A stretch of 37,779 nt of DNA from Thermoplasmatales archaeon SW_10_69_26 (GTDB lineage Archaea; Thermoplasmatota; SW-10-69-26), in assembly GCA_003009755.1 (NCBI GenBank), contig PXUB01000016.1, positions 1 to 37,779 of the forward strand, read 5' to 3'. Shown here one piece after another: positions 2,699-37,779 of the stretch. The notes beneath the pieces are model-generated. The model was not told the origin of the DNA. It saw nothing but the letters and a program-made list of their open reading frames with translations, and searched no databases. Position 1 is the stretch's first letter. The number at the start of each line of letters is the position of its first letter. Made by a program: the position numbers and the translations under genes.

Positions 2699-3604
2699 TC
2701 AGCAGACCTCCGCGGGGGAGAACCCGGCCTCGTGCAGCCCATCCTCGAGGCTCACGGGCTCCGTCCCCAACCCGGCCTTGGAAGAGGTCTTCGGTAGGCC
2801 CTCGCGGGGAGCCAGGCCCACCAGCTCGCCGTCGACGACGCCCGCGCCGTGCTCCTCGGCCTCCTGGCGAACCCGCGAGAGAACGTCGGTCGTGCCGGTC
2901 GCGTGCGCGTCCGTGATGTTCGTGGACACCTGCACGCGGTCGCCTCGCGAGGCCAGCCCGAACGCCAGCGCCTGGACGCCCGGCAGGCCGCCACCGCTGG
3001 CGCGGATCGCGCGGGCGATCGCTTGGCCGACCTCGAGGCTGCGCGTGTCCAACACGACGTTGTAGGCGATCAGCGGGTCGCGCACGCCCACGCAGGCCGC
3101 TCCCATGCGAGGGTGGAGCCTGCCGGGGCCCTGGTCCGGCGCAAGCGGGACCGGGTGGCCCGGCTCGGCCGCCGCGAAGGCCCGGCGGACGTCGGCCAGC
3201 TTGCGGGTGCGGGACCGGCGGGCGAGCTCGGCGTAAGCATAGGTGGGGACCGATCGGCCGGCCAGGCGCCGCATCGCGGTCTCGGCGACCCGGTGGGCTT
3301 CCCGGCGGGGCGCATCGAGCGCCACGAAGGGCACGACGTCGAGCAACCCGACGCGGGGATGGACGCCCTCGTGCCCGGCGAGCGAGGCGTGGGTCTCGAG
3401 CGAGGCCGCCAGCTCGTCGACCACGCCCAGCAGGGGTGCCGGTGCGCCGGCCAGCGTGAGCACCGAGCGCCGGTGGTCGCGGTCGGCGTGCACGTCCAGC
3501 AGCCGGCAGCCGGGGCCTTGGGCTGCTTCGATGTCGGCGAGCACCTGAGCCAACGCGTCGTCCTGGGGGCCCAGGGAGACGTTGGGCACGCACTCCAGCA
3601 GCAC
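2699..3604 (-). CDS. ftcD: Glutamate formiminotransferase (stand-alone FT domain)
   Basis: Motifs LLECVPNVS, D.DHRRSVLT, H.GVHPRVGLLDVVPF, GVRDPLIAYNV, QVSTNI, ELVGLAP. GTG start at 3604 inferred. Divergent from hutI. Confidence 0.88.
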   Translation of the reverse strand: MLLECVPNVSLGPQDDALAQVLADIEAAQGPGCRLLDVHADRDHRRSVLTLAGAPAPLLGVVDELAASLETHASLAGHEGVHPRVGLLDVVPFVALDAPRREAHRVAETAMRRLAGRSVPTYAYAELARRSRTRKLADVRRAFAAAEPGHPVPLAPDQGPGRLHPRMGAACVGVRDPLIAYNVVLDTRSLEVGQAIARAIRASGGGLPGVQALAFGLASRGDRVQVSTNITDAHATGTTDVLSRVRQEAEEHGAGVVDGELVGLAPREGLPKTSSKAGLGTEPVSLEDGLHEAGFSPAEVC

Positions 3605-3679
3605 GTCGAGGGAACCCGTCGGCCCGGTAAGAACGTGGCCCCCGAAACCGTCAACAACGCGAACGGCGGTGGTCCAGCC

Positions 3680-4921
3680 ATGCCCGAGGCCGACCTGCTC
3701 GTCACCGGGCTCGACGAGCTCGCGACCCCGACCCAGGCGGGCCCGATCCGCGGCGAGGCGATGGGGCAGCTCCGTGTCGTCGAGGACGCCGCCCTCGCCA
3801 TCGCCGGGGGGCGGATCCAGCGCGTGGGGTCGGCCGAGGAGCTGGCCGACGTCGACGCCGACCGACGTTGGGAGGCCGAGGGCGGCACGCTCGTTCCTGG
3901 GTTCGTCGACGCGCACACGCATGTCGTGTGGGCCGGGGATCGAGCCCGCGAGCTGGCGATGAAGCTCGAGGGCGCCAGCTACGAGGAGATCCTGGCCGCT
4001 GGCGGCGGCATCCACAGCACGGTGGCCTCGACCCGGGAGGCCAGCGAGGACGAGCTGGTCGGCCAAACGCGGGCACGGTTGGACCGGTGCCTGGCCGCGG
4101 GCACGACGACGATGGAGGCCAAGACCGGCTACGATCTCACCGTGGAGGGCGAGCTGGCGCTGCTCGCCGTGCTGGCCGAGCTGGACGCGACGCATCCGAT
4201 GGACCTCGTCCCGACGCTGATGGGCGCCCACGCGATCCCCGACGACGTCGAGCGGGCGGCCTTCGTCCGCGAGCTGGTCGAGGAGCTGACGCCGCGCGCC
4301 GCCAGGCAGGGCCTGACCGCCTTCTGCGATGTGTTCGTCGACGAGGGCGCGTTCACGGTGGACGAGGGCCGAGCCATCCTCGCGGCCGGGCGCGAGGCCG
4401 GGCTCGAGGTCCGCATCCACGCCGACGAGCTGGCTCGGACCGGCGCCGCCCGCCTGGGCCTGGAGCTCGACGCCGCCAGCATCGACCACTGCAACCGCGT
4501 CACCGCCGAGGACGTCCAAGCGCTTGCCGAGGCCAGCGTCGAGGGGTGGGACGGCGTGGCCACGCTTTGCCCGGTGACGCCGTTCACCAGCGACGTGCCC
4601 TACCCGCCGGCGCGCGACCTCGTGGAGGCCGGCGTCCCGGTGGCCTTGGGTTCGGATCTCAACCCGAACGCCTGGAGCGAGGGGATGTGGTTCACCCTCG
4701 CCTTAGCCGTGCACGAGCTGGGCCTGACGCCGGCCGAGGCCTTGACCGCGGCGACGGCCAACGCCGCCGCCTCCCTGCGACGTTCCGACGTCGGCCGGCT
4801 GGTGGAGGGCTGCGTGGCCGACGCCGTGCTGGTCGACGTCCCCTCGCACGAGCACGTCGGCTACCGCGTCGACGGGCCGCCGATCGAGGCCGTGGTCAAG
4901 GCCGGCGAGCGCGTGGTCTGA
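3680..4921 (+). CDS. hutI: Imidazolonepropionase
   Basis: PGFVDAHTH, GGGIHSTV, GTTTMEAKTGY, FCDVFVDEGAF, HADEL, ALGSDLNP. ATG at 3680. Confidence 0.93.
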   Translation: MPEADLLVTGLDELATPTQAGPIRGEAMGQLRVVEDAALAIAGGRIQRVGSAEELADVDADRRWEAEGGTLVPGFVDAHTHVVWAGDRARELAMKLEGASYEEILAAGGGIHSTVASTREASEDELVGQTRARLDRCLAAGTTTMEAKTGYDLTVEGELALLAVLAELDATHPMDLVPTLMGAHAIPDDVERAAFVRELVEELTPRAARQGLTAFCDVFVDEGAFTVDEGRAILAAGREAGLEVRIHADELARTGAARLGLELDAASIDHCNRVTAEDVQALAEASVEGWDGVATLCPVTPFTSDVPYPPARDLVEAGVPVALGSDLNPNAWSEGMWFTLALAVHELGLTPAEALTAATANAAASLRRSDVGRLVEGCVADAVLVDVPSHEHVGYRVDGPPIEAVVKAGERVV

Positions 4922-5328: not shown

Positions 5329-6056
5329 CCGAGGCTTCGCAGGACAGGCCACGCCCGGCGCTGCGGGACCTGTTGACCAAGATCGCCGAGGCCGGCGGCA
5401 TCCAGGGGTTCGTCTCGACCTCCTCCAGCGAGGTCGGCGATCGCGTGGACGTCTCCCAGCAGACGGCCTCCCGATGGCTCGTCCAGCTGGACGAGGCCGG
5501 CTACCTCGAGCGACGGTTGGGCTCCAGCGGCCAACAGCTGCGGTTGACCGACGAGGGCGTGTCGGTGCTCGCCGCCGAGCTCGACCGCTTGCGCGCGATC
5601 TTCGGCGAGGCCGACACCGTCCACCTCACCGGCACCGTCGCCCAAGGCGACGGCGAGGGCGCCTACTACATGAGCCAGCCCTTCTACAAGCGAGGCTTCG
5701 AGGAGCTCGTCGGCTTCACGCCGTTCCCGGGGACGCTGAACCTCGAGCTCGACGGCAGCGACCTGGACTCGATGCGGGCCCTGCGCAACCGGGAGGCCTT
5801 GGAGATCCCGCAGGTCAAGACCCCGGAGCGCACCTTCGGCGGCGTGACGGCCTACCCGGCAGAGGTCGGCGACCAACCGGCGGCCGTGATCTTCCCGCAC
5901 CGCACCCGGCACGAACGCGTGCTCGAGGTCATCGCGCCCGAACGGTTGCGCGACGTCCTCGATCTCGCCGACGGCGACGAGCTGACGGTGCGGGTCGAGA
6001 CCCGGCCCGACCGGCGCACCCACAACCCCCGAGAGGACCACGAGGAGACGGGCTGA
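5325..6056 (+). CDS. ribK: CTP-dependent riboflavin kinase with N-terminal wHTH (RbkR-type)
   Basis: N-terminal VSQQTASRWL..LDEAGYLER. Kinase motifs G.V..GDGEGAYY, PFPGTLN, P.RTRH...LEVIAP..LR..L.LADGD. Confidence 0.92.
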   Translation: MTEASQDRPRPALRDLLTKIAEAGGIQGFVSTSSSEVGDRVDVSQQTASRWLVQLDEAGYLERRLGSSGQQLRLTDEGVSVLAAELDRLRAIFGEADTVHLTGTVAQGDGEGAYYMSQPFYKRGFEELVGFTPFPGTLNLELDGSDLDSMRALRNREALEIPQVKTPERTFGGVTAYPAEVGDQPAAVIFPHRTRHERVLEVIAPERLRDVLDLADGDELTVRVETRPDRRTHNPREDHEETG

Positions 6057-6057
6057 G

Positions 6058-6585
6058 GTGGGCGAGGTCACCGTGCTCCGGCTGGGCCACCGCCCGGCCC
6101 ACGATCGACGCATCTCGACGCACCTGTGCTTGACGGCGCGAGCCTTCGGTGCCGACCGCATCGTATTCCCCAGCGTGGACAGCTCGCTCGAGGCCACCGT
6201 GGACGACATCCGGGAACGGTTCGGCGGCGGGTTCAGCCTCGAGGAGGACCCCGAATGGCGACCGTTGATCCGCGAGCACGAGGGGCCCTCGATCCACTTG
6301 ACGATGTACGGCCAGCGCCACACCGACGCGTTGGCGGAGATCGACGCCGGGGACGGCATGCTGGTCATCGTCGGCGCCGAGAAGGTGCCCGCCGACGTCT
6401 ACGATCTGGCGACGCACAACGTCGCGGTCGGCAACCAACCGCACTCCGAGATCGCGGCCCTCTCGACCACGCTTCTCGACGTGTTGGGCCCCGACGAGCT
6501 GTACGCCGAACGAGCGGACGCGGAGATCGTGATCGAACCGAGCGACCGGGGCAAGGACGTTCGAGAGGTCGACCGCGGCGGCTAA
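6058..6585 (+). CDS. trm56: tRNA (cytidine-56-2'-O)-methyltransferase aTrm56
   Basis: VLRLGHRP..DRRISTH..LTARAFGA, HLTMYG, VGAEKVP, VGNQPHSEIAAL. Confidence 0.95.
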   Translation: MGEVTVLRLGHRPAHDRRISTHLCLTARAFGADRIVFPSVDSSLEATVDDIRERFGGGFSLEEDPEWRPLIREHEGPSIHLTMYGQRHTDALAEIDAGDGMLVIVGAEKVPADVYDLATHNVAVGNQPHSEIAALSTTLLDVLGPDELYAERADAEIVIEPSDRGKDVREVDRGG

Positions 6586-6688
6586 GGGCCAGGATGCCCA
6601 GGCGGGCGTTCGTGTACTTCGTCCTTGGGAACTTCGCCATCCCTTTATCCGTCGTCGGCCGGCAGTGGTGCCGTGCGAGGAGCGTCCG

Positions 6689-7189
6689 ATGACCGAGATC
6701 CCCGACGACGTTCGAGAAACGGTGGAGGAGGAGATGGGTGACGAGGGTCTCACGATCCTGGAACACCTCGCGGATCTGGGACCGACGACCGACACAGTGC
6801 TCGCCGAGGAGCTGGACACGAAGACGAGCACGATCCGCCGCAACCTCTACCAACTCTACGAGGAGCGCATCGCGGACTACCGCGAGAACCGCGACGAGGA
6901 GAAAGGCTGGCTGACCTTCGTGTGGTCCTACACCCCCGGCGAGGCCCAGCGCGAGCTCGAGGAGGCTCGCGAGGCCGCCGCCGAGGAGATCCGCGAGGAG
7001 ATCGAGCGCGTGAAGGAGTCCGAGCTGTTCGTCTGCCCCGACGAGCACGTACGGTTGGAGTTCGCCGAGGCGATGGACCTCGAGTTCCACTGTCCCCGCT
7101 GCGGGGTCTCGGTCGAACGCGAGGACACCAGCGAGCGGCTGGCGGACCTCCGCGAGCAGCTCGAAGCGATGGAACAAGGGACGGCCTGA
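6689..7189 (+). CDS. tfe: Transcription factor E (TFE alpha)
   Basis: wHTH with TD..LAEEL.....IRR.LY.L..., RDEEKGWLTF.W, and a zinc ribbon CPDEH...F.EAM...FHCPRCG. Confidence 0.93.
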   Translation: MTEIPDDVRETVEEEMGDEGLTILEHLADLGPTTDTVLAEELDTKTSTIRRNLYQLYEERIADYRENRDEEKGWLTFVWSYTPGEAQRELEEAREAAAEEIREEIERVKESELFVCPDEHVRLEFAEAMDLEFHCPRCGVSVEREDTSERLADLREQLEAMEQGTA

Positions 7190-7224
7190 CCCCACGGTTT
7201 TGTTGACGGAGCCGGTTCGGGTCT

Positions 7225-7758
7225 GTGATGGTCACGCCCGACGAGGCTCTCCAGCTGCTCGACGAGGCCGGGTGTTCGGACGACGTGCAAGAACACGCGG
7301 CCGCGGTGCTGGATCTGGCGATGGCGATGGCGCGACGGACCGCGGTCGACGAGGACGTCGTCGCCGCCGGCGCGCTGCTGCACGACGTGGGACGAGGCTT
7401 CTCCCACGGTCCCGACCACGTGCCGAAGGGCGTGGCGTTCTTGGAGGACGCCGGTGTCGACGATCGGATCGTGGCCTGCGTGGCCCGGCACATGGGTGCG
7501 GGCGTCAGTGACGAGGAAGCCGAGGAGCTCGGCTGGCCAAAGGGGACCTGGACGCCCCAACGGATGGAGGAGAAGATCGTCGCCCACGCCGACAACCTGA
7601 CCGGCGGCACGGACTACCGCGATCTCGACCGCGTGATCGCCGAACTCGAGACCGGCGGTCACGAGGACCTCGTGCCGCGCATGCGGTTGTTGCACGAGGA
7701 GCTGGCCGATGCGCTGCACGAGGAGCCGTCGACGATCGCCCGCCAGTTGAGGACCTAG
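7225..7758 (+). CDS. HD-domain metal-dependent phosphohydrolase (TIGR00295-like)
   Basis: H...V, GALLHDVGR, RHMGAG, EEKIVAHADNL. Typical neighbour of tfe and trm56. Confidence 0.88.
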   Translation: MMVTPDEALQLLDEAGCSDDVQEHAAAVLDLAMAMARRTAVDEDVVAAGALLHDVGRGFSHGPDHVPKGVAFLEDAGVDDRIVACVARHMGAGVSDEEAEELGWPKGTWTPQRMEEKIVAHADNLTGGTDYRDLDRVIAELETGGHEDLVPRMRLLHEELADALHEEPSTIARQLRT

Positions 7759-7856
7759 ACTGCCGGTCTTGGTTTGCTTGGGCTCTCGCGCCGGTCTGGG
7801 CGTTTTCACCGCCTGAGGCCGAGCGAGAGCTTAACCCAAGCACAGCCGGCAGTCTA
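7756..7856. mobile_element. MITE-like element, copy 1 (101 bp)
   Basis: 11-bp terminal inverted repeats TAGACTGCCGG/CCGGCAGTCTA. Both ends match the 16713-17384 element in inverted orientation. Confidence 0.85.
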
Positions 7857-8543
7857 ATGCGTGAACCGCTTCTCGAAGAGGAACGTCAGGTTGCGTAACC
7901 CGTCGTTCCAGGACTCCAGCTTGACCTCGCCGATGCGTTCCCGGTAGGGGATGTCGACCTCGATCGCGCCGACGTCGGGGTGCTGGAAGGCCTCGATCTT
8001 GATCTCCTCGCTCATCGGCATCCCGTCGTCGGTGATCTCGATCCGATCGAGCACGGAGCGGCGGAACACCCACATCCCGCTTTGGCTGTCCTCGAAGGAC
8101 GTGCCGAACAGGACCCGGCAGCTGGTGGACAGGACCCAGTTCCCGAACCGGTGCTTGGGCGTCATGGCCCCGTCCTCGAGGTGGGCCAGCCGGTTGGTGG
8201 TGATGAAGTCCAGATCGTCCTGCTCGAGGCGTTGCACGAGGTCGGTCGCGAGCTCGAAGGGGTAGGTCCCGTCGGCGTCCCCGGTCACGATGACGTCCGC
8301 GTCCGTCTCGGCGAACCCGGTCTTGTAGGCTCGCCCGTACCCCGAGCGGGGCTCGGTGACGACCCGGGCGCCCCACTTGCGAGCGATCTCGGGGGTCCGA
8401 TCGTCGCTGTCACCGTCGACGATGAGGACCTCGACCGTGTAGCCGTGGGCCTCGAGCTCGTCGGCGGGGATCGTGTCGAGGGTCGGCTCGATGGCCTCCT
8501 CCTCGTTCAGGGTCGGGATGACGAAGCCGATGGACCCGCTCAC
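7854..8543 (-). CDS. Family 2 glycosyltransferase (DPM1-like)
   Basis: VIPTLNEE, IVDGDSDDRT, GYGRAY, DADGTY, DSQSGM, Y.ERIGE.KL. Confidence 0.92.
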   Translation of the reverse strand: MSGSIGFVIPTLNEEEAIEPTLDTIPADELEAHGYTVEVLIVDGDSDDRTPEIARKWGARVVTEPRSGYGRAYKTGFAETDADVIVTGDADGTYPFELATDLVQRLEQDDLDFITTNRLAHLEDGAMTPKHRFGNWVLSTSCRVLFGTSFEDSQSGMWVFRRSVLDRIEITDDGMPMSEEIKIEAFQHPDVGAIEVDIPYRERIGEVKLESWNDGLRNLTFLFEKRFTH

Positions 8544-28714: not shown

Positions 28715-31219
28715 ATGGACCCACTGGCGCGCTTGGCTCGCGGCTGCACCCGGCATCCGTGGGTGACCGTTCTCGTCCTCGCGGCCGCGACCGTCGGCTT
28801 CGTCGCCGGAGCTCCCGCCCCCGAGCGCGCCGACCTCGACGAAGTGTTCGTCCCCGAGGAGTTGCCCTCACGCCAGGCCGCCGACCGGATCGCGGACACG
28901 TTCGGCGAGACGACGCCCGCCCTCGTCCTCTTCGACGGCCGAGCCCCCACCGATCCCGACGTGTTGCGTGCCCAGGCCCGCCTGGCGGACCAGGTCGCCG
29001 ATCCAACCCCCGTCGAGGCGCGCAGCCTGGCCCACGCCGTGGAGCAAGCCACCGGCCAAGACCCCCGCCAGCTATCCGACGAGGACCTGCAAGCGGCCGC
29101 CGAGGAGGTCACCCGCCGCCCGCAGACCGCCGGCCTGGTCGGCGAGGAGGCCAGCCTGCTCGTGCTCGGGTTCCCGGCCGACGCCGACGAGCGGGCGATC
29201 GTGGACGCGACCCAGGCCGGCCTCGAGGGCATCGACGACGATCTTGCGGGCCTCGAGGTCACCGCCTCCGGCCCAGCTCACCTCACCGTCGACCAACGCG
29301 AGTCCGGCGAGGGCGACCTGCAGGTGCTGATGCCGCTGGCGGGCCTGGTGCTGTTGGTCGTTCTCTACGCGACGTTCCGGCGAGCCTCCGACGTGGGCGT
29401 GTGCCTGGCGACCGTGTTCGCCGCCACCGGGCTCGCCTACGCCGCCTTGCCGTGGCTGGGGGTGCCCTTCTCGCCGCTGTTGTTCAGCGTGGCCCCGCTC
29501 ATCGTCGGGCTCGGCGTCGACTACGTGCTGCACATCGTGTACGCCTACCAAGACGAAGCCGCCACGCAACGCTCGGCGCCGGCCGCGATGGAGCGGGCCG
29601 TCCACCGCGTCGGGCGTCCGGTCGCCTTCACCGTCGTCACGACCTGCATCGGGTTCGGCTCCTTTCTGGCGTCCCCGATCCCGCAGATCCAGCACTGGGG
29701 CGCGTTGATCGGTTCTGGGGCGTTGGCAGCCTTCGTGCTCGGCTTCACCCTCCTGCCGGCCGCGGTGGGGCTGCGCGACCGGGAACAGACCCCCGAGGAC
29801 CGCCGTCCCGGCTGGCCGGGCGTGATCGTCGACAAGCTCGCGGACGGCGTCGGGGCCCGCCCCATCGGCGTACTCGCCGGGTTGGCCATCCTCACGGTCG
29901 CCGCCGGGGCCGGGGTCGCCTCGGTGGACGTGGCCGAGTCGGTCGCGCAGACGGACACGACCACGCCCGCCGAGCGGCGGCTGGACCGGATCGAGGCGAC
30001 CGTCGGCACGCAAGCCAGCGCTCGGGTGCTCGTCGAGGGCGAGGCCGGCGACCTGCGCGAGCCGTTGGACGAGCTCTCGCAAGCGCTGGCCGACCGGCCC
30101 GGCGTCGAGGCCCTCGACAGCCCCACCCAGCGAGCCCGCGCCCAAACGAACGGGTCCCTGCCGGCGGAGGACACCTACCGGGAGCTCGTGGCCGAGGGCC
30201 CGCCCGGGGAGCTCACCGCCGACGGGATCACCGTGATCGAGCTCCGCTACGACGACGGAGACCCGGAGGCCGTGTTCGACGCCATCCGGGACACCCTGGA
30301 GACCAGTCCGCTGGAGGCCCAGCTCACCGGATCGGCGGTGATCCGGGAGGACAGCTCGGGCCTGATCTTGCCCAACCTGGTCCGCTCCACCGGCGTAGCG
30401 TTGGCGCTCGTGGGCGTGACGCTGGCCGCGATCCACCGCTCGTGGCGCTGGACCGCGCTGGCCGCAGCCCCGCTGGGGCTCGTGCTCGTCTGGCAGTTCG
30501 GCGCCATGGGCGCCCTCGGCGTCGACCTGAACCCCGTTACCGGGGTCACGACGGCCATGGTGATCGGGATCGGCGTCGACTACACCATCCACACGACCCA
30601 AGCCACGCGGCGCGCGCTGGCCGAGGGACGATCGGGAGCCCAGGCGGCTCGCGCCGGCCTCGGCGAGGTCGGCCGCCCGGTGTTGGCAGCGACGGTAACG
30701 ACCACCGGCGCCTTCCTGGTGTTGGCCGTCTCGAACAACCCGCAGGTCGCCCAGTTCGGGCGCGTGGCGGCCGTCGTCATCGCCAGCGCGTTCCTCGCCA
30801 GCCTGACGTCGGTGCCTGCGCTCGTCACCCTCTTCGGCCCGGAGACCGACGACGACACGAGCGAGGCCGACGATCCGGCGGCCGAGCCCGAGGCCCGCTG
30901 GCGGTTGCACCGGGTCCAGTGCCCGGCCTGCGGGGCCTCCGGAGCCCTGGCTCGGCCACGGTCCATCGCCGCTGTGGGCGAGGCCACGTGCCGGGCCTGT
31001 GGGGGCGCCGTGCCCGTCGAGGGCGCGGGTCGGCCGGTCCCGTCCGCGCCGGAGGTGGGGCCCTTCCAGCGCTGCCTGCGGTGCCGGGCGCGGTGGAGCA
31101 GCGACGGTCGCGCCGGGACCGGCGTCGAGCTGGAACGGTGCCCACGCTGTGGCGAGGCCGACGATCTGCGGCGCGTGCAGCGGGTCCCCTGGCCGTCGAT
31201 CAGTAGGGGTCGTCGGTGA
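28715..31219 (+). CDS. MMPL/RND-family transporter with C-terminal double zinc ribbon
   Basis: Two MMPL halves with GLGVDYVLH and GIGVDYTIH motifs. The tail carries CPAC, CRAC, CLRC and CPRC. Confidence 0.9.
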   Translation: MDPLARLARGCTRHPWVTVLVLAAATVGFVAGAPAPERADLDEVFVPEELPSRQAADRIADTFGETTPALVLFDGRAPTDPDVLRAQARLADQVADPTPVEARSLAHAVEQATGQDPRQLSDEDLQAAAEEVTRRPQTAGLVGEEASLLVLGFPADADERAIVDATQAGLEGIDDDLAGLEVTASGPAHLTVDQRESGEGDLQVLMPLAGLVLLVVLYATFRRASDVGVCLATVFAATGLAYAALPWLGVPFSPLLFSVAPLIVGLGVDYVLHIVYAYQDEAATQRSAPAAMERAVHRVGRPVAFTVVTTCIGFGSFLASPIPQIQHWGALIGSGALAAFVLGFTLLPAAVGLRDREQTPEDRRPGWPGVIVDKLADGVGARPIGVLAGLAILTVAAGAGVASVDVAESVAQTDTTTPAERRLDRIEATVGTQASARVLVEGEAGDLREPLDELSQALADRPGVEALDSPTQRARAQTNGSLPAEDTYRELVAEGPPGELTADGITVIELRYDDGDPEAVFDAIRDTLETSPLEAQLTGSAVIREDSSGLILPNLVRSTGVALALVGVTLAAIHRSWRWTALAAAPLGLVLVWQFGAMGALGVDLNPVTGVTTAMVIGIGVDYTIHTTQATRRALAEGRSGAQAARAGLGEVGRPVLAATVTTTGAFLVLAVSNNPQVAQFGRVAAVVIASAFLASLTSVPALVTLFGPETDDDTSEADDPAAEPEARWRLHRVQCPACGASGALARPRSIAAVGEATCRACGGAVPVEGAGRPVPSAPEVGPFQRCLRCRARWSSDGRAGTGVELERCPRCGEADDLRRVQRVPWPSISRGRR

Positions 31220-31745
31220 CGAACCCGACGAAGGCGCCCCAGGCACCGAGGATCAGGTGCAGGACGTTCTCGCCCGGCTCCAGGTGCAGCGTCGTGAGGT
31301 TCTCCAGCAGGTCGACGAAGCCCCCGAGGAACCCGGCGACGCCGAGCAGGAGGTAGACGACGCCGATCGCGCCGGCGGTCGGCTTCGAGGCCCCGCTCGT
31401 GCGCAGGCCCGTGAACCCGAACGCGAGCGCGATCGCAGCCAGCGCGACGTGGACGACGTTGTGCGCCCAGTCGAAGACGAGGATGTTCTCCATCGCTTCC
31501 ACGTTCGGCACGTAGGCGTAGTTGCCGCCGATCGCGTTCACGACGAACCCCGCGAGGGCGATCAACGCGAGCAAGACCCCGCTGATCCGCCAGTAGCCCG
31601 AGGGCGTGTCGAGGTCCCAGGCCCCGACCGTGGTCCCCTCGTCGGCGAGCCCCTCGGGGGGTTGCGAGGGCTCCTCCGCGGGTCCGTCTCCACCGTGCCC
31701 CGTTCCCGGGGCCTCGTCCGTGTCCTCCTCCGTTCCGTTGGGCAT
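31200..31745 (-). CDS. DUF4383-like membrane protein
   Basis: Four TM segments with AHNVVH, GVVYLLLGVAGF and ENVLHLILG motifs. ATG at 31745. Confidence 0.75.
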   Translation of the reverse strand: MPNGTEEDTDEAPGTGHGGDGPAEEPSQPPEGLADEGTTVGAWDLDTPSGYWRISGVLLALIALAGFVVNAIGGNYAYVPNVEAMENILVFDWAHNVVHVALAAIALAFGFTGLRTSGASKPTAGAIGVVYLLLGVAGFLGGFVDLLENLTTLHLEPGENVLHLILGAWGAFVGFVTDDPY

Positions 31746-31885
31746 AGTACCACCGACCACAGCGGCTGCCACGGGAAGAACGCTACGCTCTCGCTCGACC
31801 CTCGCTCCGATCGACCTCGTCGGGCCGCCTTGTCCCAGGCCACCACCCGAACCCTCATAACGCTCGAGCCCCAAGCACCGGACAC

Positions 31886-33829
31886 GTGCCACGACCTCCG
31901 TCCACGAACGACGCGGGCCTCAAGGAGCTTCGCGACGAGACCCCGCAGGCCTTCCTTCGCCTGTTGTTCCGCTACGGACGCCGCCATTCGCCGATCCTGG
32001 CCACCGGCGTCTTCACGGGGATCGTGGCTCGCGCCCTCGAGCTGTTGCCGGCCTTCCTGCTCGGCCTCAGCCTCGACACCGTGTTCTACAGCTCGCGTGC
32101 CTTCGCCGTGCCCGGCTGGCCGGCCGCCTGGACCCCCACCGACCCCACCGGTCAACTCGTCCTGCTCGGCAGCTTGATCGGCGTGGCCTACGTGGGATCC
32201 GCCGGGTTGGGCTGGCTGAACGGCTGGGCCTGGAACCGGTTGGCCCAGCACATGCAACACGAGGTCCGCACCGACGCCTACGCCGCCATGCAGGAGCTGG
32301 AGGTCTCCTTCTTCGACGAGCGGCAGACCGGCGAGCTGATGAGCGTGCTCAACAACGACGTCAACCAGCTCGAGCGGTTCCTCAAGCACGGCCTCAACAT
32401 GGGGTTCCGCATCGTCGTCCTCATCGGCGGCATGGCGGCCGTCATGTTCCTGCTCAACTGGCAACTGGCCCTCATCCCGCTGTTGTTCATCCCGGCGCTG
32501 GGCCTGGCCAGCTTCTGGTTCGTCGACCGGATCTACCCCAAGTACCAGGCCGTCCGCTCGGCCGTCGGCGAGCTCAACTCCCGGTTGGAGAACAACCTCG
32601 GCGGCATCGAGGTCGTCAAGGCCTACCGCCGGGAACCCTTCGAGCGCGAACGCGTCGAGGAGGCCAGCGAGGGCTACCGCGACGCGCAGTGGGACGCGAT
32701 CACGACCCGCATCCGATTCTTCCCCGCCCTGCGACTGCTCACGGCCAGCGGTTTCCTCGCCACGTTCTTCGTCGGCGGCCTGTGGGTCGTCGGGTCCGCG
32801 CCAGCGTTCTTCGCCGGCACCCTGACGGCCGGCACGCTCGTCACGTTCCTCCTCTACACGCGCCGGTTCATGTGGCCGATGCGCGAGTTCGGCCGCATCG
32901 TCAACGACCACCAGTACGCCGAGGCCGCCAGCGAACGCATCCTCGGCCTCCTCGACCGCCCGCCCAGCATCCACACGGCCGAGGACGCCATCGAGCTGCA
33001 AGCCGTGGCCGGCCACGTGAGCTACGAGAACGTGTCCTTCGCCTACCGCGGCGCCGACGAGCCGGCGCTGGAGAACATCGACCTGGACATCGATCCCGGC
33101 GCCACCGTCGGCCTCGCCGGCCCCACCGGCGGCGGCAAGACCACGATCACCAAGCTGTTGCTCCGCTTCCACGACCCCGACGAGGGCAGCCTCCGCCTCG
33201 ACGGGGTCGACCTCCGCGAGGCCGACCTGGCCAGCCTGCGCGAACGGGTCAGCCGCGTCCGCCAGGACGCCTACCTGTTCCACGGCACCGTCGCCGAGAA
33301 CGTCGCCTACGGCGCCGCCGACGCCGACCGGGACGACGTGCGTCGAGCCGCCGAGCGCGCCGGCGCCCACGAGTTCGTCGACGAGCTGCCCGAGGGCTAC
33401 GATACCATGGTCGGCGAGCGCGGCGTCAAGCTCTCCGGCGGGCAACGCCAACGCATCGCGCTGGCCCGGGCGCTCGTCTCCGATCCCGACGTCTTGATCC
33501 TCGACGAAGCCACCAGCCACGTCGACAACGAGACGGAAGCGATCATCCAGGAGCGCCTGGCCGAGGTCACCGAACCGATCACGACGATCGTCGTGGCCCA
33601 CCGCCTGTCCACGGTCCGCGACGCCGACCGTATCGTGGTCGTCGACGAGGGCCGCGTGCTCGAGCAGGGGACCCACGACGAGCTGCTCGCCAGCGGCGGG
33701 CTGTACGCCACGCTGTGGAACGTGCAAGCCGGCCAGATCACGAACGGCGACGCGACGGGGACCACCGTCGAGGGCGGCCAAGCCGGCGAGCCGTGGGCCC
33801 AGCCGCCGAAGAAGGATCCCGAGCGGTAG
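31886..33829 (+). CDS. ABC exporter, fused permease + ATPase (MsbA/MdlB-like)
   Basis: FFDERQTGELMS, Walker A GPTGGGKTT, LSGGQRQR, ILDEATS, VAHRLST. Confidence 0.95.
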   Translation: MPRPPSTNDAGLKELRDETPQAFLRLLFRYGRRHSPILATGVFTGIVARALELLPAFLLGLSLDTVFYSSRAFAVPGWPAAWTPTDPTGQLVLLGSLIGVAYVGSAGLGWLNGWAWNRLAQHMQHEVRTDAYAAMQELEVSFFDERQTGELMSVLNNDVNQLERFLKHGLNMGFRIVVLIGGMAAVMFLLNWQLALIPLLFIPALGLASFWFVDRIYPKYQAVRSAVGELNSRLENNLGGIEVVKAYRREPFERERVEEASEGYRDAQWDAITTRIRFFPALRLLTASGFLATFFVGGLWVVGSAPAFFAGTLTAGTLVTFLLYTRRFMWPMREFGRIVNDHQYAEAASERILGLLDRPPSIHTAEDAIELQAVAGHVSYENVSFAYRGADEPALENIDLDIDPGATVGLAGPTGGGKTTITKLLLRFHDPDEGSLRLDGVDLREADLASLRERVSRVRQDAYLFHGTVAENVAYGAADADRDDVRRAAERAGAHEFVDELPEGYDTMVGERGVKLSGGQRQRIALARALVSDPDVLILDEATSHVDNETEAIIQERLAEVTEPITTIVVAHRLSTVRDADRIVVVDEGRVLEQGTHDELLASGGLYATLWNVQAGQITNGDATGTTVEGGQAGEPWAQPPKKDPER

Positions 33830-34175
33830 AAGCCGGCAACCAGCTACCGTCGATCGCGGGGGTCGCGTGTCGGGCAGCCGGCCGCTCACGGGACGCACCG
33901 TGGGCGGCGAGCGAGGGCGGGCGGCGACCGATGGGTCGGACCGAGAGAGCGTGGGGCGACCGCGGCAGGGCTGGGTGCCGAACGCGAGATCTCGATCGGG
34001 CAAGGGCCGGCTGACGGTCGCCAACGATCCGACGAACCCGAGTGAACAGCGATATCGCTGGCCCCGCTTGCTCAGCGGGCTCCCAACCCCCGCCCCCTCC
34101 GCGCCCTGCCTGCCTCTGGCCTCGACTGGGGCGAAAAGACGAGGGCGACCCGCGTGAGCGGCCACCATCGGCCGC

Positions 34176-34477
34176 CGGGCGGGCCCATGCCAGCCTGGCC
34201 AGACCGCCGGCAGGGTCACCCGACGGGGTGATGGGATCGGGCAAAAGCCTGGTCCCGACGTGACGCAAAGGGACCACATGGGTTCCGGAGCCGGGGCTCT
34301 CGGAGCGTTGCGTTCTCGTATCGAACCTCCGCGGTCAGCACCCAGTGCTGAGCGGTCGCTGGCAAGAAGCGCGAAGCAGCGGTACCCTCTGCGGTACCGC
34401 GATGCAGCGGGACGCGGCCAGCGTGACCGGCTCAGGCCACGGTCTCGATGGGAGACCATGAGGGAGCCGCCCGCCCG
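34176..34477. ncRNA. Candidate ~300-nt structured RNA or palindromic element, family unknown
   Basis: 9-bp closing stem 34176-34184/34469-34477 enclosing at least 7 local stems and a possible pseudoknot. Lies in a 650-bp convergent intergenic gap. Confidence 0.45.
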
Positions 34478-34479
34478 AG

Positions 34480-34986
34480 CTACTCCCCGATGGACCAGAT
34501 CTCGTCGCCGACGTGGTGCCAGATCGAGATCGCCTTGCCGCTGGAGGCGTCGACCATCTCGGGTCCGTCGACGAGCGCGTGCCCGATGCCGAGCGGTTGC
34601 TCGTGCTCGATGTCGACGACCCACACGAGATCGCCGTCCTGGATGGCGTCGTCGGCGTCGGTGATGCCGGGGCTCATCACGTCGGCTCCGTTGCGCAGGT
34701 GGGGGACGGCCCCCATGTCGACGGTGACCCGCCCCTCTGCGGGTCGGTGCTGGAGGAGCGCGCGAAGCGTCGGCGTGGCCTCGTCGACGTCGGAACCCTC
34801 GAGCACGACGAGCACGTTGCCCTCGTGCAGCAACAGCTCGTAGGGCCCGGCGCGGGCCTTCTCGACGAGCGCGTCGCCGTCCTCGGGCAGCGGTCGGATG
34901 CCGAGGTGGTCGTCGACGCGTTCGTTGGCCTCGCGGATGTCGTCCCCGCTGATCGGGTGCCGGTTCTTCAGCGTCAGGTCGGCCAT
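34480..34986 (-). CDS. PUA-domain RNA-binding protein (pre-PUA + PUA, MCT-1-like)
   Basis: PTLRAL, VTVDMGAVPHLRNGADVMSPGI, GKAI..WHHVGDEIW. Confidence 0.9.
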   Translation of the reverse strand: MADLTLKNRHPISGDDIREANERVDDHLGIRPLPEDGDALVEKARAGPYELLLHEGNVLVVLEGSDVDEATPTLRALLQHRPAEGRVTVDMGAVPHLRNGADVMSPGITDADDAIQDGDLVWVVDIEHEQPLGIGHALVDGPEMVDASSGKAISIWHHVGDEIWSIGE

Positions 34987-35171
34987 CGCATACGGCGATG
35001 ACGGCTTGCGCCTTAGCTGTGGGGTTGCCCCGTCCGTCGGGTCGAGGTCCCTCGCACGGGCCGGGCAGCGTCCCCGTTCGTCGAGACCGGCTCGACGCGG
35101 GCGTTGGGACGTAGGCTCGGTCGAGGCTTGAGCCTACCGGACGCCCAACATTCATTCTTTCATGCTAGTCT

Positions 35172-36419
35172 TTGTCGCCGGTGAGTGGCTTGACCAAACC
35201 AAGGGTTTCCAGCGGAGTCCTGGGGTTGTTGCTGGTTCTCGGACTGGCGATCGGTACCGCCCCGTTCTCCGCCCAGGCTGGGAGTGGCACAGTGGAGAAA
35301 GACAAGGACACGACGAAAGCTCTCTTCGAGGACGGGATCCCGGACGACATCGAGAGCTGGGCCGAGGACAACGGCGCGACGGTGAACGCGCAGGAAGAGC
35401 GGATCGACTACGTCCGATTCGCCCTCGACTCGGATACGGAAGGGGACGAGTTCCTCGACAAGCTCCGGAACCGGTCCGACGTCACGTGGGCGAACTACGA
35501 TGCTTTCGCCCGGACGACGCTGGTACCGAACGATCCCGCCTGGCCGGTCCAGTACGGACCGAGAATCATCGACGCCCCCGAGGCGTGGAACAAGACGACC
35601 GGCGACGACGCCGTTCGCCTGGCGGTCCTCGACACCGGGGTCGACGGGACGCACCCCGACCTCGACGCCCCCTGCGGTCTCGACCGCGGCAGCGACTCGA
35701 ACGGACACGGAACACACGTCTCGGGGATCGCTGCCGCCGAGATCGACAACGGCGGCCACATCGCTGGCATGGCGCAAATCGATCTGGAGTCGTACCCGGT
35801 CTGCGACAACAACGGCCGCTGTCGGATCAGCGACATCGCCCTGAACATCGTCGAGGCGTCGGCATCCGGCGTCGACGTGATCTCCATGAGCCTCGGCGGG
35901 GACTGCGAGACGGACGACAGCGCGTTCTGCCGAGGCCTCCAGGAGGCCATCGACTTCGCCTGGCAGAACAACGTCGTGGTGGTCGCCGCCTCGGGGAACG
36001 ACGGACGCGAGCGTGACGTCTCCGAACCCGGCTCGATGGATCACGTGGTCGCGGTCGGCTCCGTCGACGCCGACAAGAACCGCTCCTCGTTCTCCAACGG
36101 TGGCTTCGGGCTCGACCTCGTCGCCGCCGGCGAGGACGTCCGGTCGACGGTCCCGAGCACGAGCGGCGTCTGCGGACCCGAGGCCGACCTCATGTGCAAC
36201 CTGACCGGCACCAGCATGGCCACGCCTCACGTCTCCGGGCTCGCGTCCCTCCTGCGGAGCGTCTGTCCGTCGCTGGCCAACGACCGGGTCGTCGACGTCC
36301 TGACGGACAATACCGAGGACCTGGGGGACGGCGGATGGGACCGGCTCTACGGGTACGGGTTACCGAACGCGGACGTGGCGTTGACGGACGCGGAGAGCCG
36401 CTGCGACGGCTCGCTGTAG
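35172..36419 (+). CDS. Secreted S8 subtilase (thermitase/halolysin-like, Cys-rich, no C-terminal extension)
   Basis: Signal peptide and prodomain. Catalytic triad VLDTG, HGTHVSG, GTSMATPHVSG; oxyanion AASGN. Exact start uncertain. Confidence 0.93.
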   Translation: MSPVSGLTKPRVSSGVLGLLLVLGLAIGTAPFSAQAGSGTVEKDKDTTKALFEDGIPDDIESWAEDNGATVNAQEERIDYVRFALDSDTEGDEFLDKLRNRSDVTWANYDAFARTTLVPNDPAWPVQYGPRIIDAPEAWNKTTGDDAVRLAVLDTGVDGTHPDLDAPCGLDRGSDSNGHGTHVSGIAAAEIDNGGHIAGMAQIDLESYPVCDNNGRCRISDIALNIVEASASGVDVISMSLGGDCETDDSAFCRGLQEAIDFAWQNNVVVVAASGNDGRERDVSEPGSMDHVVAVGSVDADKNRSSFSNGGFGLDLVAAGEDVRSTVPSTSGVCGPEADLMCNLTGTSMATPHVSGLASLLRSVCPSLANDRVVDVLTDNTEDLGDGGWDRLYGYGLPNADVALTDAESRCDGSL

Positions 36420-36466: not shown

Positions 36467-36478
36467 CTTCTTTTTTCC
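36467..36478 (+). terminator. Putative oligo-T archaeal terminator after the S8 gene
   Basis: TCTTCTTTTTTC pyrimidine tract about 50 nt after the stop, preceded by a GGACCGG...CCGGTCC hairpin. Confidence 0.5.
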
Positions 36479-36615: not shown

Positions 36616-37554
36616 CTATCCGGGCACGGAGGCCGTCAACAGCTCCGAGAGGGAGACGGCCGTGCAGCTCGCGACCGGAACCCCGCACGATCCCTGGCCG
36701 GCCTCGTTCGACGCGTCACCCGTCCCGCTCGCTGCGAGGCAGCCAGCGCCCGGGTCGCCGCAGGAACTCTCGCCGGCCTCGTTCGAGGCGTTCCCCGTGC
36801 CACTAAGGGCCACGCACCCGACACCGAGGTCTCCGCAGGCTTCGTCGCCGGCCTCGTTCGAGGCGTTCCCCGTGCCACTAAGGGCCACGCACCCGGCGAC
36901 GAGGGCTCCGCAGGACGGCGACAGGGACCCCTCGGCGCCGTTCGAGGCGTTCCCCGTGCCACTGAGGGCGAGGCACCCGGCACCCGTGGAGCCGCAGGAT
37001 GCTCCCGTGGATCCACCGGCTCGGTTCGAGGCGTTCCCCGTCCCGCTCGCGGCCACGCAGCCGACACCGGTTCGGCCGCACGACTCGTCGGCGCCCTCGT
37101 TCCGCGCGTGCCCGTCGAGGCTGACGGCCACGCAACCGACACCGAGGCTCCCGCAGGTCACCTGGCCCTCCGAGGCGTCGTTGCTCGCGTTGCAGGTCCC
37201 GCTGACGGCGACGCAGCCAACTCCGACACGCCCACAGCCGACGGAGCCCGCCTCGTTGTCGGCGTCGCCGGTCCCGCTGACGGCCACGCAACCGACCCCC
37301 ACGAAGCCACAACCGCGATCGCCGGCCTCGTTCGAGGCGTTGCCAGTACCGCTCGCGGTCACGCACGCGCTGGGACCAGTGCAGTCCGTGCCTTGAGCGT
37401 CGCCCCGCACGCTGAGACTGGCCACGGTTCCGCACGTGTCGTCCTTGAGGCTCGCCTCCACCGGCTGGCAACCGTCGGCGAGGGCGACGGGAGCGACTCC
37501 CGGGAAGGCGGCGGCGACGAGCAGCACGGTACAGCACACGACGGGTGATTCCAT
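36616..37554 (-). CDS. Secreted Cys/Gly-rich tandem-repeat protein (312 aa, 9 repeats of 25-28 aa)
   Basis: Signal peptide MESPVVCCTVLLVAAAFPGVAPVALA from ATG 37554. Repeat consensus C-(V/L)-A-x-SGTGNASNEAG-x(3-6)-CG-x5. DNA repeats are visible at about 36690-37360. Confidence 0.85.
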   Translation of the reverse strand: MESPVVCCTVLLVAAAFPGVAPVALADGCQPVEASLKDDTCGTVASLSVRGDAQGTDCTGPSACVTASGTGNASNEAGDRGCGFVGVGCVAVSGTGDADNEAGSVGCGRVGVGCVAVSGTCNASNDASEGQVTCGSLGVGCVAVSLDGHARNEGADESCGRTGVGCVAASGTGNASNRAGGSTGASCGSTGAGCLALSGTGNASNGAEGSLSPSCGALVAGCVALSGTGNASNEAGDEACGDLGVGCVALSGTGNASNEAGESSCGDPGAGCLAASGTGDASNEAGQGSCGVPVASCTAVSLSELLTASVPG

Positions 37555-37779
37555 CCGAAACTTCCAGCGATCGAAGGAATCGCGGACGTAAGAACCTGTT
37601 CCCGCCGGGTCGCCGTCCCGTGAGCAATCCACCGAGGTCGTTGACGAACCCAACGGCCCGGAGGAGAACCTCACCACACCCCCGGACCAGCCGACGCGCA
37701 GCTGGCGTCGACACACAAGGCGCGGGGGCCAAGAAGGGTGAAGAACGGGCCCTCGTTGGCAGGAATGGTAGATTCACGT

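Follow-up and report, generated by a model that had tools for sequence, protein, structure and literature searches.

Near the end of a 37,779-nucleotide stretch of DNA from Thermoplasmatales archaeon SW_10_69_26 (contig PXUB01000016.1), analyzed as a whole and called the window here, a stop-free frame on the minus strand between positions 36616 and 37554 translates into a protein of 312 amino acids (aa), P0001, in which a signal peptide is followed by nine units that alternate a nearly constant spacer with a six-residue loop between two cysteines. The question raised by this locus is whether such a protein is exported to be cut at its spacers, releasing the loops as small cyclic peptides, or whether it stays whole and folds. 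A first-pass annotation made from the letters alone, which had placed the gene correctly, left the choice open between a multi-core peptide precursor and a disulfide solenoid.

We conclude that P0001 is probably a secreted protein that remains intact, a disulfide-stapled repeat protein of the beta-solenoid type that belongs to a rare and undescribed family. It would be exported by the Sec pathway and left uncut, folding as a solenoid-type stack of repeats. Each unit would open with a short strand (C-[VIL]-A-[VAI]-S) and turn tightly at G-T-G-[N/D] into another strand (A-[S/T]-N-x), which contains an invariant Asn and leads into a variable linker; a short arc would then be closed at its base by a disulfide from the Cys of 'CG' to the first Cys of the next unit, which gives the string C-x6-C. 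The stack would be finished by an N-terminal cap and a C-terminal half unit. The conserved 'spacer' would thus be a load-bearing framework, and the C-x6-C 'cores' would be stapled surface arcs, free in sequence and, across the family, in length. Eleven disulfides are predicted in P0001 (C29-C41, C58-C64 and nine C-x6-C pairs), with C121 left over. This reading, one of the two that the first-pass annotation had offered, draws on two ordered structure models, on the structural neighbours of P0001 in the ESM Atlas, on a framework shared by archaea and bacteria, on the even number of Cys in most relatives, and on the occurrence of the module as a domain of larger proteins.

Anatomy of P0001

When P0001 was split at the motif C[VLTI][ATV][VALI]S, residues 1-63 came out as an N-terminal segment, followed by nine units of 25-28 aa and, at the C-terminus, half a unit with a tail. 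The features of the gene are listed below; GC3 is the G+C content at third codon positions, pLDDT the per-residue confidence given by AlphaFold2, and HMM a hidden Markov model.

36616-37554, minus strand: whole coding sequence of P0001, 312 aa plus stop (translation; GC3 of 0.85; 37 homologues of the frame)
37477-37554, minus strand: putative Sec-type signal peptide, residues 1-26 (sequence reading; A-x-A homologue N-termini at the same place)
37366-37476, minus strand: N-terminal cap, residues 27-63 (conserved in homologues; AlphaFold2 pLDDT 91-95 for residues 31-80)
36667-37365, minus strand: nine units, residues 64-296 (motif split, Tandem Repeats Finder, DSSP, unit HMM)
36619-36666, minus strand: terminal half unit CTAVS and tail SELLTASVPG, residues 297-312, 16 aa (comparison of family C-termini)

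The N-terminus reads MESPVVCCTVLLVAAAFPGVAPVALA, followed by a predicted cut before DG. Read from the sequence, it resembles a signal peptide, with a hydrophobic core and A-L-A ahead of the cut, and homologues have N-termini of the form M-R-...hydrophobic...A-x-A at the same position, in keeping with the signal peptide proposed earlier ahead of the repeats. The cap that follows is a degenerate unit with Cys at C29, C41 and C58, which forms a tenth loop, C58-x5-C64; the cap motif of the family, C..VDV...D.C....A.S..GDA.G.C, is present in residues 1-63 of P0001 after the signal peptide.

The nine units start at residues 64, 89, 114, 141, 166, 194, 222, 247 and 272, and their lengths are, in order, 25, 25, 27, 25, 28, 28, 25, 25 and 25 aa. 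Their common plan is a strand CVAVS, a turn GTGN, a strand ASNEA, a variable linker, an arc CGxxGxG, and then the Cys of the next unit; all nine C-x6-C strings quoted in the first-pass annotation are present. Tandem Repeats Finder reported periods of 75 and 84 nucleotides with 76-94% matches and scores of 185-262, and the unit HMM found nine domains in the protein (E 2.3e-58); the repeats are far above chance level. Unit 4 is degenerate (SLDGHARN), and in unit 3, which reads SGTCNASN, a Cys (C121, window 37192-37194) replaces the conserved Gly of SGTG. Two neighbouring units are 94% identical in their DNA, so that part of the regularity of P0001 stems from recent duplication.

A rare family with a conserved framework

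A word-indexed search with P0001 gave 37 homologues at E ≤ 1e-3, and an exhaustive phmmer search of 1.84 billion representatives gave 59 matches, 35 of them at E ≤ 1e-10. Wherever the source gives these homologues a name, it is 'hypothetical protein'. To collect loci, a species-representative genome set was scanned for a degenerate DNA pattern that encodes A[VI]SGTG[ND]ASN, which gave 67 stretches (L001-L065); an earlier locus search with P0001 as the single protein had given 166 pattern matches, 0 of them confirmed. Members were called by running the unit HMM over all open reading frames (ORFs) of the loci. This search for homologues and their neighbours, of the kind that the first-pass annotation had suggested, placed members in 35 non-redundant sources, counting the window, and S8 subtilases were the sole neighbour family in at least 4 of them. 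The sources comprise 24 from Thermoplasmatota, 10 from bacteria (Burkholderiales, other Proteobacteria, Acidobacteria, Solirubrobacterales, other Actinomycetes and Acidimicrobiales), and one doubtful single-unit match (L027).

Several metagenome-assembled genomes (MAGs) carry sets of paralogues, with seven ORFs on JBFJVP contigs, six on JBFJYU and five on JBFIJP. Tandem or near-tandem pairs and triplets of paralogues were seen at L004/L005, L011/L039, L024, L052 and L020/L021.

Members of the family share a plan made of a signal peptide, the cap, units with the framework GC[VIL]A[VAI]SGTG[ND]A[ST]N, and a final half unit; P0001 carries this framework nine times in tandem, with two Cys per unit. 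In a logo of 258 units the Cys is invariant (258/258), and the positions after it are held by A in 223 units, S in 248, the first G in 242, T in 184, the second G in 251, N or D in 94 or 89, the A after N/D in 249, S or T in 140 or 62, and the final N in 234. Archaea and bacteria share this conserved framework.

No Pfam or NCBIfam model matched P0001 at E ≤ 0.1, and no Pfam family at E ≤ 1 was common to more than one of 38 aligned members. Neither the P0001 sequence nor the profile matched any PDB chain at E ≤ 10, and a full-text search of the literature for the framework words did not find the family motif. As far as these searches reach, the family is rare, has a conserved framework in Thermoplasmatota and scattered bacteria, and is undescribed, and the absence of a described family assumed in the first-pass annotation holds for Pfam, NCBIfam and the PDB. 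Beta-solenoids with regular disulfides are a known kind of protein; it is the unit, the cap and the distribution of this family that are new to the three libraries.

Predicted fold and disulfide pattern

AlphaFold2, run on P0001 with an alignment of 38 sequences, gave a model with a mean pLDDT of 73.9 and a predicted template modelling score (pTM) of 0.64, in which DSSP assigned 18 regularly spaced strands, two per unit, formed by CVAVS and ASNEA around the GTGN turn. Residues 1-20 have a pLDDT below 50. An independent AlphaFold2 model of an Acidobacteria homologue (L047, 254 aa, alignment of 40 sequences) reached a pLDDT of 85.9 and a pTM of 0.81, and repeats the strand pattern of P0001. The choice between order and disorder, which the first-pass annotation had left to structure prediction, falls on the side of order. 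Furthermore, the ESM Atlas holds P0001 letter for letter, with a model of pTM 0.73, and its structural neighbours there are proteins made of beta-strand repeats, with template modelling (TM) scores of 0.5-0.59; a search of the Atlas by features gave no usable match.

The distribution of Cys points to the way in which the units would be stapled. The Cys count is even in 35 of 39 full-length homologues. Both the inter-unit Cys and the next framework Cys are present at 179 of 181 junctions, one junction being without both, and in 37 of 38 proteins an even number of Cys remains behind the last full unit. At the start of the proteins of this family a Cys lies a few residues ahead of the first framework Cys, and at their end stands a framework Cys. 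We infer from this pattern a disulfide across each arc, C-xn-C, since a pairing within the framework would leave one unpaired Cys at each end of the molecule. P0001 ends on the half unit CTAVS like the rest of the family, yet has 23 Cys in its mature form through the extra C121. We also considered whether the first Cys might be that of a lipobox; this seems unlikely, since the counts come out even with this residue included.

Two known repeat folds offer the closest comparison. The insect antifreeze proteins of the Tenebrio molitor type are disulfide-braced beta-solenoids with 12-aa coils and a TCT motif. P0001 resembles them as a small secreted candidate solenoid of short tandem coils, whose regular Cys pattern would give roughly one disulfide for each coil, and in its flat ladders formed by small polar residues, but its coils are 25-28 aa long with the motif C[VIL]A[VAI]SGTG[ND]A[ST]N, and neither sequence nor Foldseek searches matched it to solved solenoids. 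The curli protein CsgA is made of strand-turn-strand units of about 20-25 aa with a G-x-G-N turn, arranged in a two-sheet solenoid. P0001 shares with it a turn that contains G-x-G-N between the two short strands of each unit, and differs in the register of the turn and in having Cys and caps; the curlin repeat of Pfam did not match P0001 at E ≤ 0.1 or the 38 aligned members at E ≤ 1.

The repeat module in larger proteins

In P0184 (673 aa) an NHL/GSDH-like propeller is followed by a complete module including the cap, in P0008 the module precedes a trypsin-like protease domain, and in P0034 it follows a CARDB region. The remaining long members (up to 812 aa) have extra units only, with no Pfam domain. 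These arrangements, read from the sequences, support the view that the module is a folded, portable domain.

The C-termini of the family show preferences of their own. Of 96 non-identical ends, Pro is the last residue in 37, LP closes 16 and exactly LLP closes 10, Pro accounting for only 3.8% of residues; GGD[LF] closes five bacterial members, and P0001 ends in ...SELLTASVPG (window 36619-36648), a tail related to the frequent LLP and LP ends. A sortase-type signal was ruled out, there being no transmembrane segment behind it; the tail could be a cap or a recognition tail.

Secreted proteases beside family members

The gene next to that of P0001 codes for a secreted S8 subtilase, convergent with it across a gap of 196 bp. 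The adjacent or nearby subtilases of the family are the following.

Window, 35172-36419, plus strand: S8 subtilase, secreted, 415 aa, with signal peptide (PF00082, E 1.2e-47)
L003: S8 subtilase directly upstream of the family member, same strand, with CARDB
L015: S8 subtilase 270 bp downstream, with PKD
L028: S8 subtilase 8 bp upstream
L007: S8 subtilase 5.9 kb away

The catalytic triad of the window subtilase, D154/H179/S348, is intact, and its residues are invariant in the S8 alignment. It reaches 52.8 bits on the PatA/PatG model (TIGR03895), whose cut-off is 421, and 170 bits on the mycosin model, whose cut-off is 279; by its sequence it is a generic S8 protease. A complex prediction with residues 131-415 of the subtilase and 27-312 of P0001 gave a score of 0.04 where the mark was 0.32, and was used neither way.

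The neighbourhoods were compared by all-against-all clustering of 1502 ORFs within 6 kb in the 35 sources, the analysis in which S8 subtilases stood alone as a recurring family. An S8 HMM placed a subtilase within 300 bp in four sources (the window, L003, L015 and L028) and found none in 27 non-family loci (321 kb, some overlapping). A Pfam scan covered 102 neighbouring ORFs at 21 loci. At L064 a divergent S8-like protein of 799 aa (6056-8455, minus strand; PF00082, E 1.1e-16), missed by the S8 HMM, is convergent with the family member at a distance of 51 bp, an arrangement like that in the window. An S8 gene is thus adjacent in at least 5 of the 35 sources, all of them Thermoplasmatota. The other neighbours in the Pfam scan are mixed: housekeeping genes, toxin-antitoxin genes, and some secreted propeller, PKD and DUF11 proteins. 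No recurring maturation enzymes were found near members: apart from S8 and housekeeping genes, no enzyme family turned up in three or more loci. Among the 21 loci scanned, L003 alone has a radical SAM gene, at a distance of 2.5 kb.

Secreted beta-propellers (PQQ-like, LVIVD) lie near members at L028:1881-3632, L052:9650-10951 and L036:6988-8628, and with these three loci and the P0184 fusion they form a second recurring class of partners beside the proteases. A run of six T at window positions 36471-36476, about 52 nucleotides past the stop of the subtilase gene and inside the convergent gap, may be an archaeal oligo-T terminator; a scan for sigma-70 promoters and hairpin terminators, which is ill-suited to archaea, returned 0 sites.

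Variation in the loops and the framework

The first-pass annotation had described an invariant Cys spacing with varying residues between. The spacing is indeed constant within P0001, where every loop has six residues, but across the family it runs from 3 to 28 residues, often uniform inside one protein (14 in five units of P0026, 10 in four of P0011). As to the residues, G occupies loop positions 1, 4 and 6 in 9/9, 7/9 and 8/9 units, respectively, and V or A occupies position 5, so that free variation is confined to positions 2-3 and the other four are largely fixed. The linker ahead of the first Cys, 3-6 residues long, is equally variable. The proportions of nonsynonymous (pN) and synonymous (pS) differences between the units of P0001 were as follows.

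Loop positions 2-3: pN 0.68, pS 0.61
Whole loop: pN 0.27, pS 0.69
Framework of 15 codons: pN 0.20, pS 0.47

By this comparison between units there is no signal of diversifying (positive) selection on the P0001 loops, and positions 2-3 appear neutral.

An N-A-S sequon in most spacers had also been pointed out earlier, and it is present in 6 of the 9 units of P0001. Its interpretation as a glycosylation sequon fares less well. The 258 units have N at this position in 94 cases and D in 89, and the counts by origin of the loci are similar in ratio.

Archaeal loci: N-x-S/T in 54 units, D-x-S/T in 80, total 207
Bacterial loci: N-x-S/T in 19 units, D-x-S/T in 22, total 67

The conserved feature, as judged from the aligned units, is [N/D]-A-[S/T]-N and not a glycosylation sequon, and the N-A-S of P0001 is probably incidental because N and D are used about equally, and in a similar ratio in bacteria. 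On these counts we reject the idea that selection acts on N-glycosylation here; in the archaeon itself, exposed N-A-S sites may nevertheless be glycosylated.

Weighing the readings

Several observations count against an intact solenoid. The signal peptide of P0001 has no basic n-region, and the mature protein holds 23 Cys, an odd number due to C121, which may carry a free thiol, link molecules to one another or stem from a sequence error. The pLDDT of the P0001 model falls to 49-58 in residues 131-160 and 291-312 (low at 155-160, 291-295 and 308-312). Foldseek gave 0 matches at E ≤ 1e-3 (the PDB with both models, and BFVD), with a best TM of 0.24-0.37. Its weak top matches are uniformly beta-helices or solenoids (polygalacturonases, alginate lyases, tailspikes, pentapeptide-repeat proteins, designed solenoids and PfbA), the lists being headed by the right-handed parallel, pectate-lyase-like beta-helix at E 0.65 or worse and TM ≤ 0.31; as no structural match is significant, the label 'solenoid' follows from the class of these weak matches and from the periodicity of the strands. 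The cross-section, the handedness and the disulfide pairing are inferred from models and Cys patterns, not seen directly. Conserved flanks around a variable insert would also be expected of a multi-core precursor, and an S8 protease adjoins the gene. Finally, the proposed function comes only from fusions and from an association with neighbours in a minority of loci.

By analogy with its relatives, P0001 would act as an extracellular binding, adhesion or scaffold module, standing alone in this organism; in those relatives the module is fused with secreted proteases and propeller enzymes or has their genes for neighbours. If this is true, a named domain family would be added to the largely unannotated exoproteome of the uncultivated Thermoplasmatota. 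The homologue whose fold is confidently predicted (pTM 0.81) has no solved structural neighbour, so that a structure would be informative, and a small rigid scaffold whose stapled loops vary freely in length could serve protein engineering. A tempting but unsupported claim, that of an archaeal library of RiPPs, peptides made on the ribosome and modified after translation, would at the same time be removed.

A bolder version of this proposal goes beyond what we would call likely, and we offer it tentatively. P0001 would be the founding member of a new extracellular domain family, a stapled solenoid whose cross-section is absent among solved structures and which in Thermoplasmatota has been expanded by paralogues into a display or binding scaffold, acting through the arcs and/or a ladder of Thr, Asn (Asp) and Ser, and working with secreted proteases.

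A related explanation puts all the weight on the arcs, which would form a recognition surface of diversified loops, the paralogue sets of Thermoplasmatota being a repertoire of binders or variable surface proteins. The seven, six and five paralogues of the JBFJVP, JBFJYU and JBFIJP MAGs, the tandem arrays at L004/5, L011/39, L024 and L052, and the loops of paralogues that differ in length and sequence on a fixed framework would all fit such a repertoire. We nevertheless consider it quite unlikely: the free loop positions have a pN/pS of about 1 and not more, loops within one protein are mostly alike in length, as recent duplication predicts (with the two P0001 units of 94% DNA identity as an example), and no diversification machinery was seen among the genes of the window.

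The multi-core precursor is the explanation that the layout of the gene first brings to mind. In it P0001 would be exported and cut at its spacers, for example by the neighbouring S8 protease, to release nine disulfide-cyclised C-x6-C octapeptides, making it an archaeal analogue of cyanobactin PatE or of the fungal Kex2-processed repeat proteins. Precursors of the PatE type carry short variable segments between conserved flanks, and a subtilisin-family protease is encoded nearby. Proteins processed by Kex2 have dibasic cleavage sites (KR, RR or KK) between their repeats. The resemblance of P0001 to PatE lies in the repeated variable segments with constant flanks and in the subtilisin-family gene close by, active-looking here and adjacent at four other loci of the 35. 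With the fungal proteins, including those of the ustiloxin type, it shares the layout of a signal peptide and tandem repeats, with an S8 enzyme as the would-be processor (PMC7329392).

We give this explanation a slim chance only, as the same elements look different when the whole family is considered. Both AlphaFold2 models are ordered, so that the units are predicted to be structured, and P0001, unlike PatE, has a Sec signal, a confident folded model and a cap, and belongs to a family with fusions in which the module sits as a domain in larger proteins. The cap and the C-terminal elements are conserved, the loop length varies between 3 and 28 residues in the family, and only two of the six loop positions are free, evolving neutrally. 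There are no dibasic sites between the units, as there would be in a Kex2 substrate, nor any other obvious cleavage sites; the 312 residues include one K and six R, none of them adjacent. Thirty of the 35 loci have no adjacent S8 gene, and the S8 of the window stays far below the PatA/PatG cut-off (52.8 bits against 421). The neighbourhoods held no PatA/PatG-type protease, heterocyclase or other recurring maturation gene. The precursor named first in the first-pass annotation is not supported by this evidence.

A further explanation takes the polar ladder as the working face, the Thr, N/D, S/T and invariant Asn of each coil binding a ligand that is itself periodic (Ca2+, ice, a mineral or a polysaccharide, for instance), in the manner of Ca-bound or Thr-ladder solenoids. 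These positions are conserved across phyla (T in 184, N+D in 183, S+T in 202 and N in 234 of 258 units). Region IV of MpAFP from Marinomonas primoryensis, part of an extracellular adhesin, is described as a Ca2+-bound, RTX-like solenoid with units of about 19-21 aa (PMC3492233). P0001 has, like MpAFP, tandem units with a GTGN(D) turn, and its GTGN resembles the consensus xGTGNDxuxuGGxuxGxux given for that ice-binding solenoid (PMC3492233). Only GTGN is shared, however, the units of P0001 being 25-28 aa long and containing Cys, which MpAFP lacks (PMC3492233). This difference in unit length and Cys content, the absence of similarity to any PDB chain at E ≤ 10, the absence of RTX or other Pfam matches (E ≤ 0.1 for P0001, E ≤ 1 for the 38 members), and the fact that the residues may just form the turn and an internal Asn ladder leave very little probability to this explanation.

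Strand, frame and start of the gene

The intact, stapled repeat protein favoured here presupposes that the minus strand is read. P0001 starts with ATG at 37554 and stops at 36616-36618. Its strand and frame are supported by a GC3 of 0.85 (0.83-0.95 in confident genes of the genome), by a pN below pS among the repeats, and by the 37 homologues of the sense frame. The ATG is likely the true start, rather than the upstream GTG at 37716, because the extension of 54 codons between them has a GC3 of 0.74, compared with 0.86 in the repeats, and because family homologues begin about 25-30 aa ahead of their first Cys. That the repeat is non-coding, or that the coding frame is the ORF on the opposite strand (36662-37396, plus), whose GC3 of 0.84 is on a par with that of the sense frame, has practically no chance of being true given sense-frame homologues on many independent contigs with a signal peptide, a cap and invariant Cys, a pN below pS in that frame, and confident structure models of its protein.

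Other genes of the window

The archaeal origin assumed in the first-pass annotation agrees with the gene content of the window, which includes aTrm56, TFIIE-alpha, an archaeal D-aminoacyl-tRNA deacylase, FKBP26 and PAC2, and with a housekeeping GTPase whose closest named relatives, at about 61% identity, are in Thermoplasmatota MAGs. The genes upstream of the subtilase are the following.

28715-31219, plus strand: MMPL transporter
31886-33829, plus strand: ABC exporter
34480-34986, minus strand: PUA protein

The ABC exporter was considered as a dedicated exporter of P0001 and rejected: ABC-like ORFs occur in only 3 of the 35 sources, 3.7-4.4 kb away. An ORF of 1197 aa on the minus strand (31562-35155) was also discarded as an artefact of high G+C, with a GC3 of 0.66 and no Pfam match; the real genes in this interval are those for the ABC exporter and the PUA protein. 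Elsewhere in the window, two divergent genes at positions 2699-4921 are connected with histidine degradation: the minus strand codes for a formiminotransferase (FTCD_N/FTCD) and the plus strand for an imidazolonepropionase-like amidohydrolase. Their ORFs, as listed, overlap only because they are lengthened by the high G+C content.

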